20,000 nucleotides of DNA. It comes from an uncultured virus (IMG/VR IMGVR_UViG_3300029305_002833). Taxonomy: Duplodnaviria > Heunggongvirae > Uroviricota > Caudoviricetes. Positions 856-20,000 of the stretch are shown here, piece by piece (position 1 is the stretch's first letter; each line of letters opens with the position of its first letter). Location: IMG/VR virus record IMGVR_UViG_3300029305_002833, one strand, 5' to 3'. Both the position numbers and the translations under genes were made by a program. The notes under the pieces are model-generated. The model saw only the letters and a list, made by a program, of their open reading frames with translations. It did not search any database and was not told where the DNA came from.

Positions 856-890
856 AAAAAGCCGGTAGTTTATCGGCTACCGGCCTTCTT
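856..890 (-). terminator. Intrinsic terminator of the RHH gene (possibly bidirectional)
   Basis: Stem GCCGGTAG (861-868) / CTACCGGC (877-884). On the minus strand it is followed by TTTTT, and on the + strand by CTTCTTT. It overlaps the RHH stop codon. Confidence 0.75.
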
Positions 891-1031
891 TGCATCGACG
901 TGATCTTGCAAAACCTTGATGATGTAGTTGTTGAAACTGCGGCCATCTGCCTTTGCGAGTTCTTCCAGTTCCGCTTTCAGCGTTTTCAGAATCACCAGGT
1001 TTGCCCGTACCTTGTCCGGTGAAATGCTCAT
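870..1031 (-). CDS. Arc/ribbon-helix-helix DNA-binding protein (53 aa)
   Basis: MSISPDKVRANLVILKTLKAELEELAKADGRSFNNYIIKVLQDHV fits the RHH strand-helix-(GRS.N)-helix pattern. RBS AAGGGGG lies 7 nt before ATG 1031. The same protein is encoded at 7794-7958. Confidence 0.88.
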   Translation of the reverse strand: MSISPDKVRANLVILKTLKAELEELAKADGRSFNNYIIKVLQDHVDAKKAGSR

Positions 1032-6301: not shown

Positions 6302-7525
6302 ATGAAAGAAAATATCATGGAAATCAGGGGCAAGCATGGAACTGCGGTTTGCTTTGCGAAGATCATAGAGGACAGCGCCATAGAACAGATTCGGCGTATG
6401 TGCGATTATGATTTTACAGAAAACTGCCGTATCCGCATTATGCCGGACGTACACGCCGGGAAAGGATGCACCATCGGCACGACCATGACGATCAGGGATA
6501 AGGTTGTACCGAATATCGTTGGCGTTGATATAGGCTGCGGCATGTATTGCGTCAAGCTGGCGCAATCAGACATCGACCTGAAAGCCCTTGACTCGGCGGC
6601 GCACTTCATACCGTCCGGCATGAACGTATGGGAGCACAGGGTCGGCAAATTCGACCTACAGGCTCTGAGATGCTATCGTCATCTGCGGGACACAGATCGG
6701 CTTGAACGCAGTTTGGGGACGCTGGGCGGAGGAAATCACTTTATCGAGGTTGATCGTGGGAGCGACGGGGCGCTGTACCTTGTGATTCACTCCGGGAGCC
6801 GCAACCTCGGGAAGCAGGTGGCCGAATACTACCAGAATGTTGCGATCCGCCTTAACGCGGGGATTGAAAACTACGACAAGCGAAAGGAAGCCCTCGTCGC
6901 GGAATACAAAGCGGCTGGCCGGCAGTCTGAAATCCAGGCGGCACTTAAAGCGCTGAAGGAGGAAAAGAAGGAACGCACAATCCCGGATGATCTGTGCTAC
7001 GTGTACGGGAAACACCTTGAAGATTACCTGGCGGACGTGGTTGTGTGTCAGAAATACGCCCGCCGGAACCGGGAATTGATGGCCGAAATCCTCATGGAGA
7101 TGGCGGGAATTGTCGGGGTGGAATCGTTTCATACCATCCACAATTACATTGATACGGATGAAATGATTCTGCGAAAGGGCGCAATCGCCGCGCACAAAGG
7201 CGAGAGGGTGCTCATACCCATCAACATGCGGGACGGCAGCGTGCTTGCCATCGGGCGCGGGAACCCGGATTGGAACTATTCAGCGCCCCACGGCGCGGGC
7301 CGGATTATGTCACGGGCGGCGGCAAGGTCGAATCTGACCGTTGAAGCGTATGAAGAATCCATGCGGGGCATATACACGACATCCGTCAACGCAGGCACGA
7401 TAGACGAAGCGCCCATGGCGTATAAGTCTTTGGCGGACATCATGGATGTGATCGAAGCATCCGTGGACGTGGTTGACGTGATGAAGCCGATATTCAACTT
7501 CAAGGCGGTGGAGAAGGAGGGATAG
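6302..7525 (+). CDS. rtcB: RtcB family 3'-phosphate/5'-OH RNA ligase
   Basis: MPDVHAGKGCTIG, GVDIGCGM, GTLGGGNHFIE, HSGSR, HNY, RKGA, SAPHGAGR and DEAPMAYK. Confidence 0.95.
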   Translation: MKENIMEIRGKHGTAVCFAKIIEDSAIEQIRRMCDYDFTENCRIRIMPDVHAGKGCTIGTTMTIRDKVVPNIVGVDIGCGMYCVKLAQSDIDLKALDSAAHFIPSGMNVWEHRVGKFDLQALRCYRHLRDTDRLERSLGTLGGGNHFIEVDRGSDGALYLVIHSGSRNLGKQVAEYYQNVAIRLNAGIENYDKRKEALVAEYKAAGRQSEIQAALKALKEEKKERTIPDDLCYVYGKHLEDYLADVVVCQKYARRNRELMAEILMEMAGIVGVESFHTIHNYIDTDEMILRKGAIAAHKGERVLIPINMRDGSVLAIGRGNPDWNYSAPHGAGRIMSRAAARSNLTVEAYEESMRGIYTTSVNAGTIDEAPMAYKSLADIMDVIEASVDVVDVMKPIFNFKAVEKEG

Positions 7526-7526
7526 C

Positions 7527-7730
7527 GTGAAGGATATTGAAAAGGATTTCAAGTTGAACTGGCTGGACGAAAAGCAAATCTTTCGGATCAGTGAAATCAA
7601 CGAATGTGCGAAAAGCCTTGCGGCGATGATCGAGAGCGCTTGCCCGGATGGGCGGGAAAAGGCGCTGGCGTATACAAAACTTGAGGAGTGCGTGATGTGG
7701 GCGCGGGCGGCGATTGCAAAGGAGGTATGA
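7527..7730 (+). CDS. Acb2/Tad1-like helical hairpin protein (candidate cyclic-nucleotide sponge)
   Basis: CPDGREKALAYTKLEECVMWARAAIA resembles the RExxLAxTKLEExxMW hairpin of Acb2/Tad1-type proteins; RBS GGAGG. Confidence 0.65.
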   Translation: MKDIEKDFKLNWLDEKQIFRISEINECAKSLAAMIESACPDGREKALAYTKLEECVMWARAAIAKEV

Positions 7731-7732
7731 AC

Positions 7733-7775
7733 GTGGTCGATTACATTCTGAACAGGGACGAAAACGGGATGGTGC
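7733..7775 (+). pseudogene. Truncated 5' stub of the gene at 9586 (MVDYILNRDENGMV), interrupted by cassette 2
   Basis: GGAGG at 7721-7725 lies 7 nt before GTG 7733. Fourteen codons align without gaps to MTEYTLNRNEQGMV at 9586. The frame then runs into the cassette and stops at TAG 7817-7819. Confidence 0.75.
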
Positions 7776-7780
7776 GAAAA

Positions 7781-7817
7781 GAAAAGCCGGTAGTCACTTC
7801 CGGCTACCGGCCTTCTT
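7781..7817 (-). terminator. Intrinsic terminator of RHH copy 2
   Basis: Stem GCCGGTAG (7786-7793) / CTACCGGC (7804-7811), followed by TTTTCTTTT on the minus strand. The stem matches copy 1 but the loop differs. Confidence 0.75.
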
Positions 7818-7958
7818 AGCATCGACGTGATCTTGCAGAACCTTGATGATGTAGTTGTTGAAGCTGCGGCCATCGGCCTTTGCCAGTTCTTCCAGCTCCG
7901 CTTTCAGCGTTTTCAAGATCACCAGGTTTGCCCTTACCTTGTCCGGCGAGATGCTCAT
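7794..7958 (-). CDS. Arc/ribbon-helix-helix DNA-binding protein (54 aa), copy 2
   Basis: Same 53 aa as 870-1031 plus a terminal K; same RBS. Confidence 0.88.
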   Translation of the reverse strand: MSISPDKVRANLVILKTLKAELEELAKADGRSFNNYIIKVLQDHVDAKKAGSRK

Positions 7959-7979
7959 GGTATCGCCCCCTTCGGGCTG

Positions 7980-8074
7980 ATGATAGCACAGTTTCAAAGT
8001 GTTGTCAAGTTACGTAACTTTTAACCTATGGATAATTACAGAAAGTGCGTAAAAGTGATATAATAGTTACGTAA
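7980..8074. promoter_or_regulatory. Divergent promoters and operators, copy 2
   Basis: Minus-strand TTGACA (8008-8003)-17 nt-TATCAT (7985-7980); palindrome AAGTTACGTAACTT at 8007-8020; TGaTATAAT (TATAAT at 8059-8064); TTACGTAA at 8067-8074. Confidence 0.8.
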
Positions 8075-8092
8075 GTAAAAGGAGGCGAGATT

Positions 8093-8935
8093 ATGGGAAA
8101 GGTCAAGGATTTGACGGGCCGCAGGTTTGGAAAACTGTTAGTTCTTGGAGTTGGCGAGAAAACACACGACGGAAGAAATCAATGGAAATGCAAGTGTGAC
8201 TGTGGAATGGAAACGCTTGTAATAACAGGAAACCTTTCAAGCGGACATACGAAAAGTTGTGGCTGTTGGAAAGAATCTATTCGCAATGATTTGACAGGGC
8301 GTAGATTTGACATGCTGGAAGTTATTTCATACGCGGGAAGGGACAACAGAAACAAGCCGCTTTGGACGTGCAAATGTGATTGTGGAAACACAACGGTTGT
8401 AAACAGTTCGGCGTTGGTGACAGGGAACACAAAAAGCTGTGGTTGTCTTAGATTGCTTGGCAATAATACAATACACAGAATGTCATATACGAGGTTGTAT
8501 TCTATCTACAACAGTATGATCAGGAGATGTTATGAAGAGGGGACTACCGGCTATGAGAACTATGGTGGAAGAGGCATTAGCGTATGTGACGAATGGCGAG
8601 AAAAATCTATAGGCATGATAAGGTTTTTCGATTGGGCGTTTGCAAACGGATATACAGATGAACTGACACTTGACAGGATTGATGTTAATGGAAATTATAG
8701 CCCGAACAACTGTCGCTGGGCGAATCGTTCAATGCAATCATTCAACAGAAGAAACAGCCAGAGCAGAACCGGAGCTCGTGGTGTAGACTACCAAGATAGA
8801 TACGGTGGAAGATATATTGCGAGAATTGGATATCAGAACCAGAATATATATTTGGGTTCATTCAAAAGAATAGAAGATGCGATTGAAGCACGCAAAAAGG
8901 CAGAGATGAAATATTTCGGAATGACATTGAATTAG
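8093..8935 (+). CDS. HNH-type homing endonuclease with two N-terminal Cys/Zn repeats and a C-terminal AP2 domain
   Basis: Two DLTGRRF...W.CKCDCG...G.TKSCGC repeats; [12 protein letters not shown]...[21 protein letters not shown]2-like GARGV...YIARI...IYLGSF...[18 protein letters not shown]. Confidence 0.87.
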
Positions 8936-8946
8936 GAGGATTTACG

Positions 8947-9582
8947 ATGAAAGAGATCAAGCCGATTGAGACAGAGTACAACGGGTATCGGTTCAGAAGC
9001 CGGTTGGAAGCGCGGTGGGCGGTGTTTTTTGATGCGGCTGGGATTGAATACCAGTATGAGCCGGAAGGGTTTGATTTGGGTGGTGGATATTATTATCTTC
9101 CTGATTTCTTTCTTCCTCAAATTGAACTCAGAGACAATAGAATTGGGTTATATATTGAAGTAAAAGGCGTTCTTTCAGAAGATGACAAACAGAAAATAAG
9201 GCTGTTTTCTGGTGAAGAAGTATACAAAGACGGGAAAATACAAAGTGCAGATGATTATTGGTATTACAAATGCGAAGCGCCGGATGAAAGCTATCCGATT
9301 ATGTGCGTCGGACAAATCCCACAGGGTTTTGATGGCGGTTGGACGTGGCATGAAGCTAACGAAGATGAGTATTATTATTGGACATTTGCACATATTGATG
9401 GCGATGAATACTGGTGTGATTTTTACAAGAAGAAGAACGGAAATGTATGCGTGTGTGGTCCGGACAATGATTACATGATGGACAATGGTTTAGAAGGTTT
9501 CTATGCCTTTAATGATGCTTTTAGAATAGCCCGACAAGCCCGATTTGAACACGGAGAAAAGCCGAGAGTAAGGAGGAATTAG
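8947..9582 (+). CDS. PD-(D/E)XK-fold nuclease-like phage protein
   Basis: YNGYRFRSRLEARWAVFFD...YEPEGF...YLPDF...IEVKG, C-terminal ARFEHGE. RBS AGGAGG; AT-rich. Confidence 0.75.
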   Translation: MKEIKPIETEYNGYRFRSRLEARWAVFFDAAGIEYQYEPEGFDLGGGYYYLPDFFLPQIELRDNRIGLYIEVKGVLSEDDKQKIRLFSGEEVYKDGKIQSADDYWYYKCEAPDESYPIMCVGQIPQGFDGGWTWHEANEDEYYYWTFAHIDGDEYWCDFYKKKNGNVCVCGPDNDYMMDNGLEGFYAFNDAFRIARQARFEHGEKPRVRRN

Positions 9583-9585
9583 TCA

Positions 9586-10098
9586 ATGACAGAATACACG
9601 TTGAACAGGAATGAACAGGGTATGGTGCATTATCTGTACAAGAACGATGGCAAACATCCATATGTCGGATATTGCAAGTGGGAGAGCGCCAGGTGGATGC
9701 TGGAGAACGACAGGTCGCGGGAATTGCGGATGTCGGAGGAGTACGAGGGGTTTCCGCTGACGGCGGATGGGGTTTATTTCTTTGACGGGGCGGTGCGGAC
9801 TGGTGATGCTGCGGTGTCAGATGGGGGAGCCAGCGTTCCCGCTGCGGTGTCAGATGGGGACGGTTCTCCCGGTCACACCGATGCTTGCGGTGGGCGATGC
9901 GGCGGCGGAATGATCGAGGGCGAGGGCGGTGACGGTGTGACAGATGAGAACCGTCCCCACATGACACCTTCGCTGCCGTCGGCGGCGGACGGCAGCGAAA
10001 GCGCTGCGCCGGGGTGCGGGAAGGACTGGTGCGAGATTCCGGAAGCGGCGGAGAGGCCGAGGCGGAAGAAGAGGACGAAGGATGTGGCGTGCGAGTGA
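9586..10098 (+). CDS. Hypothetical protein; globular N-terminal ~70 aa plus a repeat-derived low-complexity tail
   Basis: AGGAGG at 9571-9576. The 5' part is AT-rich and the 3' part consists of palindromic repeats. Confidence 0.7.
   Translation: MTEYTLNRNEQGMVHYLYKNDGKHPYVGYCKWESARWMLENDRSRELRMSEEYEGFPLTADGVYFFDGAVRTGDAAVSDGGASVPAAVSDGDGSPGHTDACGGRCGGGMIEGEGGDGVTDENRPHMTPSLPSAADGSESAAPGCGKDWCEIPEAAERPRRKKRTKDVACE
9808..9999. repeat. Cluster of direct and inverted repeats inside a CDS
   Basis: GCTGCGGTGTCAGATGGGG twice (9808, 9841); inverted pair GGGGACGGTTCTC (9856-9868) / GAGAACCGTCCCC (9946-9958); perfect 12-bp hairpin TTCGCTGCCGTC / GACGGCAGCGAA (9969-9999). Confidence 0.8.
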
Positions 10099-10370
10099 TG
10101 ACCGTTAGGGATGTTGTCAACCAAATCCATGCGCTGGAGCGCAACCTGGAGATGATTGACGCGGCGCAGCGTGCGGGGTTTGACCTGAATGTGACCGTGG
10201 AGCAGATTGACGCTACCAGGCGTGAAATCGAGCGGCTGTATGCCCTGGAGATCGGCGGCGTCAATGTGCAACTGGGAGCCATGCGTGCTTGTGATGAACT
10301 GCGGGGCATGGTGGAGGATATCGTGAAGAGCGCCTATGAGCGGGTGTTCGGAGGGCAAGAAGATGGGTGA
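10098..10370 (+). CDS. Hypothetical helical protein
   Basis: TGATG coupling; MTVRDVVNQIHALERN... Confidence 0.65.
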   Translation: MTVRDVVNQIHALERNLEMIDAAQRAGFDLNVTVEQIDATRREIERLYALEIGGVNVQLGAMRACDELRGMVEDIVKSAYERVFGGQEDG

Positions 10371-14311: not shown

Positions 14312-14637
14312 CGCGGCAGAGGATGGTCGAGTTGCTTGAAATCGAGATGGAATGCGTTCGCCGGAATGGGTGCGGAGAATGCAATCGCGCCTGTCACATC
14401 TGCGATTTGCTTCAGGATGACACAGAACTGCATGAGATGTACGAAGAGGTGATCGCGCTGATGAAAGCGCAGGAACTGGTTGAAGCAAATTGCGAACATC
14501 GATGTAACAAATGCAAGTTTTACGAAGGTGTACATAATGTCATGGGCCATGCGCCATGTTCGTTATGGAAAATAAGTGGAGTTATGTGGAACGATTACTG
14601 CTCACGTTTCAATTTGTGGAAGGATGGTGAAGTATAA
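14308..14637 (+). CDS. Cys-rich hypothetical protein
   Basis: ECVRR...CNRAC..CDL and CNKCKFY...DYCSRF; ATGA coupling. Confidence 0.7.
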   Translation: MTRQRMVELLEIEMECVRRNGCGECNRACHICDLLQDDTELHEMYEEVIALMKAQELVEANCEHRCNKCKFYEGVHNVMGHAPCSLWKISGVMWNDYCSRFNLWKDGEV

Positions 14638-14803
14638 TGGATATGAGGGATACGACGTCTTGTGATTGCGGAGAAATGGACAAGTGTATTGTCGTTTGCT
14701 CGGCGGGCGGATTTGGGCTAAGAGGGATAAGGGGAAGGCACAAAGCGGGAAGAATTGGCAAGTGGTGTTAAGGGAAAACGGCAAAGATGGGTATGCAGGA
14801 GGG

Positions 14804-19383: not shown

Positions 19384-19652
19384 GAGAAGGACAGAAAAGG
19401 CGGCTGTACGGCGTCGAGGTGGCCGTCGGCGACGGCGAAGGGAAGTGCGGGGAAATCACCAGGGCGCTGGTCAATGTGCTCGCCGCGAACGAAGGCGAAG
19501 CAGAACGCATGGCCATGAAGGTGTTTTTGAAAACCAGGGCCAGAAGGCGAAGACGCTGGCAGTGGGCCTGCGAACGAAGGAACGAAGGAACAGCGTCGAC
19601 GAACGAAGAACCTGCGAAGAGGAGGGGCCCGGGAACGAATGATTTTTTGTGA
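19380..19652 (+). CDS. Hypothetical protein, paralog of the preceding C-terminal domain
   Basis: ATGA coupling; RLYGVEVAV...VNVLAANEGEAERMA. Confidence 0.6.
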   Translation: MREGQKRRLYGVEVAVGDGEGKCGEITRALVNVLAANEGEAERMAMKVFLKTRARRRRRWQWACERRNEGTASTNEEPAKRRGPGTNDFL

Positions 19653-19808
19653 CTTCACGAAAATGGTCTATACAGGTATTACTTTATATAGCGTCTATCC
19701 TTTATTATACTTTTTATCTGCTATGATTATACTTGTAACTGTATAGTATATATTATACTTATAGTAAAGAGAATCCGTTTGCAAAGAAAGGAGTAGTGAC
19801 GCGATTTT

Positions 19809-20000
19809 ATGGCTATGGATAGGGTTAAAAACGAAGGCGGCAAGGTCGTCAGATTTGACGCGAAAAAGAATCGACAGAAGGTTCAGACCAACACAGAACA
19901 GGCCCCCAAAAAGCCAAGGGGCAGAAACGGAACCGGTACGGCGTCCATTGAAAAGAATACTACTGCTCGCCCAGAGGAGATCGCCCAGGCGGTCAGGAAC
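19809..20000 (+). CDS. 5' part of a basic protein (partial), possibly terminase small subunit
   Basis: Open to the window end (MAMDRVKNEGGKVVRFDAKKNRQKVQTNTEQAPKKPRGRNG...); follows a long AT-rich spacer with AAAGGAG. The function is guessed from position only. Confidence 0.45.
   Translation, partial: MAMDRVKNEGGKVVRFDAKKNRQKVQTNTEQAPKKPRGRNGTGTASIEKNTTARPEEIAQAVRN

Follow-up and report, generated by a model that had tools for sequence, protein, structure and literature searches.

The 20,000-nucleotide stretch of uncultured virus DNA analyzed here (IMG/VR record IMGVR_UViG_3300029305_002833, Caudoviricetes; hereafter the window) carries a 1.8 kb, low-GC nuclease cassette at 7777-9585, which lies between two versions of the start of a single gene, here called X. 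The cassette comprises three genes: one for an RHH protein (minus strand), one of HNH/AP2 type and one of PD-(D/E)xK type. The arrangement is probably the scar left when a homing-endonuclease cassette entered a phage gene by one-sided recombination. The native 5' end of the 170-residue gene X has been displaced and survives as a stub left of the cassette. To the right, X is complete again, with its own ribosome-binding site (RBS) and start codon and with a 5' end that appears to come from another phage. Read in this way, the scar would hold the donor allele, the resident allele, the breakpoint and the crossover in one sequence. The relic and the parts of the restored gene are as follows.

7715-7776, plus strand: relic of resident gene X (RBS GGAGG at 7721-7725, GTG at 7733, first 44 coding bases), assigned by DNA match to the X start of locus L007
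9570-9576, plus strand: RBS AAGGAGG of restored X, within the last codons of the PD-(D/E)xK gene, as read from the sequence
9586-9678, plus strand: foreign (donor-type) 5' tract of X, codons 1-31, read as the co-conversion tract, matching protein P0026
9679-10098, plus strand: resident part of X, codons 32-170, matching loci L001 and L006

A displaced start of gene X

In the left copy, the GGAGG motif is separated by a 7-nucleotide spacer from a GTG that opens the product MVDYILNRDENGMV. This GTG lies two nucleotides past the stop codon of an Acb2/Tad1-like gene, and the good RBS has been retained. The right copy begins with ATG at 9586 and gives the product MTEYTLNRNEQGMV. A preliminary description of this DNA had located both gene starts correctly, with 9 of 14 residues identical and a shared ATGGTGC ending (7769-7775 and 9622-9628). 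The two copies share 30 of 44 bases, and a local alignment of one flank against the other gave a z score of 5.1; none of 300 shuffles reached its score.

The stub was compared with nine distinct related loci from IMG/VR and JGI metagenomes (L numbers) and with the 38 X homologues found in a large protein database (P numbers). The X start of L007 matches the stub and its RBS (7715-7776) with 93.5% identity over 62 nucleotides (E = 4e-20). The native stretch ends at 7776 with ATGGTGCG and thus includes 44 coding bases, one short of 15 codons. The X homology stops at this same position in 7/7 aligning loci, while the other two of the nine, L009 and L012, gave no DNA match to the stub region. Beyond it, the stub frame, which starts MVDYILNRDENGMVR, runs through 13 unrelated codons to a TAG at 7817-7819, in the 3'-terminal part of the convergent RHH gene, for a total of 28 codons. 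The 15 stub residues are found in 17 of the 38 homologues and agree with the family consensus; this includes residue 15 (R), which fits the consensus MVRYLY. VDYILNRDENGMVR is likewise present in 17/38 homologues and DENGMVRY in 24/38.

It had been predicted that cassette-free relatives would carry an intact gene with the stub's start directly downstream of the Acb2 gene. Intact genes with this start, (M/V)VDYILNRDENGMVRYLY, and no cassette in it do occur, namely for 17 of the 38 proteins and in locus L007. The predicted position was not confirmed: L001, the sole relative with that Acb2 gene, has three small open reading frames (ORFs) between Acb2 and X.

Two sequence affinities within restored gene X

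The complete gene X (9586-10098) starts MTEYTLNRNEQGMVH. Its closest backbone relative is L001, in which the Acb2 gene is 98% identical (window 7512-7724). X and L001 share 63/93 nucleotides over bases 1-93, 108/117 over bases 94-210 and 272/297 over the remainder. L006 is identical at 113/117 nucleotides over bases 94-210, and the part of X beyond the first 93 bases matches the local backbone at 92-97%. At the protein level, P0001 follows the same course, with 19/31 residues identical and then 41/44. P0026, a member of another subfamily (LESAEWML...), matches X at 31/31 of residues 1-31 and at 22/40 over residues 32-75. Base composition changes at the same place. The GC content is 0.409 for 9586-9678 and 0.657 for 9679-10098, which bears out the earlier remark that the right copy is AT-rich until about 9680; the two nuclease genes have a GC content of 0.42. 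These matches indicate that X is a chimera of 31 foreign codons (93 nucleotides) and a resident remainder, with the crossover at ~9678. The replaced tract is thus longer than the 14 codons first proposed.

The donor-type start, NEQGMV[HR]YLYKNDGKH, was found in 6 of the 38 homologues, four (P0026, P0027, P0028 and P0030) with an LESAEWML body and two (P0004 and P0005) with a WESARWML body like that of the window. Five proteins have the start NEQGMVHY. The LESAEWML body is probably the native home of the donor-type start. P0004 has the same chimeric junction as X (30/31 residues, then 38/43), with a different C-terminal background. All 38 homologues lack a name or Pfam domain. X itself has no Pfam, PHROG or NCBIfam match, and its structure model is poor (pLDDT 53.3). 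No relative of X was found in GTDB genomes, and a degenerate pattern for the donor-type start matched nothing there.

Uninterrupted relatives and the reality of the junctions

X is uninterrupted in 9/9 related loci, one of which is only 33% identical in protein. All nine carry the 15-mer ATGGTGCGGTATCTG, within which the stub breaks off, and the window's new allele reads ATGGTGCATTATCTG in its place, a change from CGG to CAT. In none of the nine is the X start occupied by a cassette; members of the cassette family are located at other sites. Gene order and content vary in every locus, so that the phage group is highly mosaic. Among GenBank phages we found no relative of the region; the RtcB gene alone was matched, distantly.

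The junctions were checked in four runs (X2, X6, X7 and X8), which are animal faeces metagenomes by their records and may belong to one sampling campaign. Contigs from 4/4 runs span both 7776/7777 and 9585/9586 with 0 differences. An assembly chimera, which the metagenome source and the second copy of the RHH module in the window might have brought to mind, therefore has a negligible likelihood.

A model for the insertion

A simple sequence of events could account for the scar. The donor phage would have carried the RHH/HNH-AP2-type/PD-(D/E)xK cassette immediately upstream of its own X allele, a P0026-like allele with the start MTEYTLNRNEQGMVHYLYKNDGKHPYVGYCK. The resident X would have been broken at or near base 44, within the conserved 15-mer. 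The right end would then have been repaired by copying from the donor, with homologous exchange inside X, a 93-nucleotide co-conversion tract and a return to resident sequence at ~9678; because the crossover falls there, codons 1-31 would be of donor type. Since the donor would have had no homology left of the cassette (nothing homologous to Acb2), the left end would have been closed by an illegitimate join with the cassette's outer end, where the RHH terminator U-tract lies. The resident RBS, start codon and 44 bases would be stranded as a dead stub. Splicing would not be needed for X to function, since the donor tract supplies its own RBS and ATG.

We infer that a nuclease cut started the event, and any choice between the nucleases as the one that acted is equally conditional. 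The location of the breakpoint in a 15-mer conserved in all nine relatives, together with the CGG-to-CAT change, fits a nuclease target and a protective polymorphism. The change at the breakpoint may thus protect the new allele.

The cassette

The cassette contains the following features.

7777-7811, minus strand: left end of the cassette, U-tract and hairpin of an intrinsic-terminator-like structure of the RHH gene, from RNA folding
7794-7958, minus strand: Arc/RHH-like small DNA-binding protein, 54 residues (phrog_582 'Arc-like repressor', E = 1e-7; weak Pfam matches to Arc and RHH_5)
7959-8092, no strand assigned: predicted divergent promoter region, 134 bp, with promoter-like sites on both strands and two TTACGTAA palindromes
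8093-8935, plus strand: HNH/AP2-type homing-endonuclease-like protein, 280 residues (phrog_374 'HNH endonuclease', E = 3e-99)
8947-9582, plus strand: PD-(D/E)xK nuclease-like protein, 211 residues, with a T7-endonuclease-I-like N-terminal domain (phrog_21138, E = 6e-41)

The hairpin on the RHH strand has a predicted energy of -22.4 kcal/mol (z = -3.6) and is followed by UUUUCUUUU. The junction between stub and cassette is the exact end of this U-tract, and all five aligned cassettes start at the same left-end hairpin. A simple terminator scan did not call the 7777-7811 hairpin. The RHH gene is transcribed divergently from the nuclease genes, and the promoter-like sites between them match at 11/12 and 10/12 positions. 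The RHH protein is probably a repressor of the cassette. The two TTACGTAA copies (8010-8017 and 8067-8074) lie within or beside the divergent promoter-like sites. Both copies, like the region around them, are kept in L007 and in a second cassette of the window (cassette 1), and they are candidate RHH operators.

The RHH gene, terminator and divergent promoters appear to travel as a module (7782-8131). It recurs in cassette 1 (857-1183, 90.9% over 329 nucleotides) and in L007 (89%), in that case directly downstream of X. Across the three sites the module is 89-92% identical and the RHH protein 100% identical, while the HNH-type genes joined to it encode proteins with only 41-52% identity. The PD-(D/E)xK gene, with ~40 nucleotides of the preceding HNH 3' end (8894/8900-9563), is 95-97% identical at the nucleotide level in two other contigs, with other HNH genes before it and other genes after it. 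The cassette is sporadic among related genomes and consists of separate ORFs with RBSs and their own promoter-like sites, outside any intron or intein. By its distribution and composition, it is a sporadic, modular mobile unit. A transposon or integrase element was considered and rejected: no transposase or integrase domain is present in the three cassette proteins, and the flanking copies, with the 30/44 identity given above, are not an identical target-site duplication.

Some further observations concern these units. Cassette 1 (857-1846) consists of an RHH gene (873-1031, minus strand) and a 226-residue HNH/AP2-type gene (1166-1846), whose protein is 41% identical to the HNH-type protein described above; it is placed cleanly between two genes, without flank duplication. 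In L007 (2848-3198 and 3187-4157), an RHH/HNH cassette lies directly 3' of X, and the X stop codon is inside the terminal hairpin of the cassette. The C-terminal third of this X is unlike that of other family members. The PD-(D/E)xK gene is 95-97% identical in three phages (window 8894-9563; L013/L014 3450-4117), compared with 70-87% for the surrounding DNA. It always stands directly behind a conserved HNH/AP2-type 3' end, and the gene that follows differs from phage to phage. It has the look of a mobile gene in its own right, with the ends of HNH genes as its target.

The two nuclease-like proteins

Residues 16-91 of the PD-(D/E)xK protein align to T7 endonuclease I (E = 0.016), with the E, PD and ExK positions matched. 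The protein also matches phrog_945 and phrog_9019, which are endonuclease and resolvase PHROGs, at ~1e-9 and has at least 7,849 relatives at E <= 1e-10. The HNH-type protein has 152,806 representative relatives at E <= 0.001. Its model (pLDDT 82.7) shows two Cys-rich repeats, which form small beta modules, followed by a core and a C-terminal AP2 domain. The AP2 fold is well matched (Z 7.0, rmsd 1.5 over 53 residues; Foldseek probability 1.0), and Foldseek with the whole model gave no match at E <= 0.001. The core contains the conserved motif (I/L)DRI(D/N)..(G/K/R).Y.P.NCRW.

Gene-end duplications at other loci of the HNH family

Flanks of other members of the HNH family were scanned for translated similarity to each other. 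Of the ~285 IMG/VR loci of this family, eighty were fetched and three with a flank under 150 nucleotides were dropped, leaving 77 loci plus the window. Gene-end duplications were found at 9 of the 77, all among the best 14 results of a crude scan in which the other top results were out-of-frame low-complexity matches and the window's own case ranked outside the top 14. The nine form two groups, one consisting of L045 and the other of L053, L054, L055, L057, L062, L065, L070 and L072. In these loci, the last ~25-30 codons of one gene occur twice, in diverged form, on either side of a cassette of a small regulator and an HNH gene, a mirror image of the arrangement in the window. The copies share 41/59 nucleotides in L045 (2469-2527 and 3724-3782) and 43/65 in L053 (2581-2645 and 3882-3946). 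One copy is joined to the gene and the other is an orphan directly past the HNH stop codon. None of the 23 other loci fetched with that gene has an HNH gene behind it. By their layout, these loci are of the type described in fungal mitochondria, which is discussed below.

It is conceivable, and we consider it rather unlikely, that gene-end replacement is a regular, intron-free route into coding sequence for the HNH/AP2 cassette family. The stub would then be a left homology arm and the recoded start an uncuttable right arm, and stub, cassette and new start would move together, as one homing unit, into copies of the gene not yet invaded. The PD-(D/E)xK gene would in turn parasitize the cassette by homing to the conserved HNH 3' end.

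Weighing the evidence

Several observations weigh against an entry of the cassette by homing and one-sided recombination. Five other instances of the cassette (cassette 1 of the window, L001, L014, L007 and L013) show no flank duplication, with z scores of -0.2 to 1.8; the formation of a stub would therefore be an accident and not a built-in property of the cassette. We found no empty-site genome of the same backbone and no cassette-skipping contig in the four runs, although contigs drop rare variants and an empty site could still exist. The left junction has microhomology of at most 0-2 bases, and the linkage of the donor allele to the cassette is putative. A search for short C-terminal PD-(D/E)xK fragments was empty, so that the short donor-allele contigs gave no support for a PD-(D/E)xK gene on them, a result that is uninformative. 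Neither Pfam nor NCBIfam gave a match to the HNH-type protein, whose core resembles the HNH nuclease PacI only weakly (Z 4.8), and the placement of this core is not confident. An invariant R occupies what we take to be the place of the catalytic H of HNH_3, and the catalytic competence of the protein is therefore putative.

The preliminary description had proposed that the element inserted into the gene and restored it with a diverged N-terminus of its own. Much of this agrees with our results, namely the displaced native 5' end and the full gene with a foreign 5' end, RBS and ATG. The ownership of the tract does not: it resembles the 5' end of a donor phage's X allele and not a part of the cassette, and the five cassettes without flank duplication argue in the same direction.

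Ordinary mosaic recombination, without a nuclease cut, would offer a different account. Co-infecting phages, or a phage and a prophage, would have recombined homologously inside X and illegitimately at the left edge of the cassette, with the nucleases as passengers. The mosaicism of the group and the inferred nature of the cleavage, by an HNH-type protein of putative competence, are in keeping with it. We nevertheless regard it as unlikely, because the breakpoint falls within a 15-mer identical in all nine relatives and the new allele differs exactly there, because the foreign tract directly adjoins nuclease genes, and because the same nuclease family is associated with gene-end duplications at another gene. 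A further alternative concerns the place of the event, not its nature. The unit of stub, cassette and new start could have been made in another lineage and moved in by two-sided homologous recombination, with crossovers at the conserved RBS boundary AAGGAGGTNTGAAC on the left and within X on the right, so that the scar would be older than the backbone. The match to L001 runs out at 7724, immediately short of the Acb2 stop codon, and the bases from 7715 onward look like the RBS boundary that precedes X in L003 and L007, where it stands behind a different gene. The P0004 junction, in its different C-terminal background, also points this way. On the other side, the exact 25-nucleotide junction of stub and cassette has 0 matches in IMG/VR, and no second genome with the junction was found. 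We consider this transfer a genuine possibility, if somewhat doubtful.

The position of the stub itself raises two more possibilities. If the cassette were an intron or intein, or were bypassed, the stub and the downstream gene would form one product; the stub and the new start are indeed in the same register, and a join at homologous positions would be in frame. Such a product is most improbable. The downstream X is full length and has an RBS and ATG of its own, the stub frame stops at its TAG, and the cassette holds a convergent gene and its own promoters. A scan of 7400-10200 found no Rfam family at E <= 1, which argues that there is no intron. The earlier statement that splicing is not involved thus stands. 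Alternatively, the stub could be a working small gene, for example a 28-residue peptide or a coupling element for Acb2 translation, as its RBS and its GTG close behind the Acb2 stop codon might suggest. However, its last 13 codons overlap the RHH terminator and the end of that gene in antisense, a homologue of this tail was not seen, and its first 15 codons are no more than the native start of X. We consider this role highly unlikely. Entry of a homing-endonuclease cassette by one-sided recombination remains the probable explanation.

Relation to known systems

The closest analogue, judged by comparison of the arrangements, is the gene hybrids formed by mobile ORFs (mORFs) in fungal mitochondria. 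In PMC3630166, such hybrids are described for atp6 of Allomyces macrogynus and for atp6, atp9, cox2 and nad3 of Glomus; a foreign C-terminus comes in with an endonuclease ORF, and the native C-terminus persists as a second copy. As in the window, an endonuclease gene arrives with a foreign, diverged end of the host gene while the native end is retained. It is the native copy that is similar to close relatives; the inserted copy is distant (63.5% nucleotide identity in Glomus atp6; 30/44 here). Unlike the phage 5' end seen here, the fungal cases in that account involve 3' ends and LAGLIDADG or GIY-YIG endonucleases, often in in-frame fusion. In the window, an RBS and a start codon come with the replacement, and the three genes of the cassette are separate and belong to other families.

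Free-standing endonucleases carried by T-even phages provide a second comparison. PMC2988022 and PMC2790892 describe intronless homing of SegF, SegG and MobE, with co-conversion and marker exclusion. T4 intron homing with one-sided homology has been shown experimentally to proceed by illegitimate repair of double-strand breaks, with microhomology junctions (PMC2988022). The window shares with these T4 systems a free-standing nuclease gene next to its presumed target, a co-converted flank, a sporadic distribution and an illegitimate junction on the non-homologous side. However, the T4 gene sits between genes, with no duplicated gene start. The cassette here has HNH/AP2-type and T7-endonuclease-I-like nucleases and a divergent RHH regulator, and it is known from sequence alone. 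Phage genes can also be split by homing endonucleases, such as Aeh1 nrdA by mobE and T4 gene 39/60 by mobA (PMC2988022). In these cases, too, an endonuclease gene lies within a coding region and host function is kept without splicing; there the result is two working polypeptides, whereas in the window X is whole again and the fragment displaced from it is dead. In the literature searched, including passages of PMC10448857 and PMC8351571, we found no account of a phage nuclease gene next to which a gene start has been displaced and replaced by a foreign one.

The scar suggests a route by which a free-standing nuclease cassette could enter an ORF without gene loss or splicing, a route known for gene 3' ends in fungal mitochondria. 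It also provides a candidate target site, around the point where ATGGTGCG meets GTATCTG, for an uncharacterized nuclease family with ~150,000 representative relatives. For annotation, stubs and chimeric starts of this kind can mislead gene calling and phylogenies.

Neighboring genes and other low-GC regions

Two genes lie upstream of the insertion.

6302-7525: RtcB
7527-7730, plus strand: Acb2/Tad1-like anti-defence gene, resident backbone directly left of the stub (Pfam PF24729, E = 6e-16; match to L001 over 7512-7724 as given above)

Further low-GC stretches are present at 14400-14700 and 19500-20000 (0.40-0.43, compared with 0.55 for the whole window); tblastn gave them no RHH/HNH-type assignment. 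The RtcB RNA ligase gene directly adjoins the Acb2/Tad1-like sponge gene (6302-7730), which suggests that the pair is a counter-defence block immediately upstream of the insertion. The RHH modules at 857-1183 and 7782-8110 form a 329-bp direct repeat, 90.9% identical, around ~6.9 kb that include both of these genes. Recombination between the two modules could lead to deletion or amplification of the anti-defence block, which may be compared with the SegB-driven amplification of anti-defence loci described in PMC13096335.

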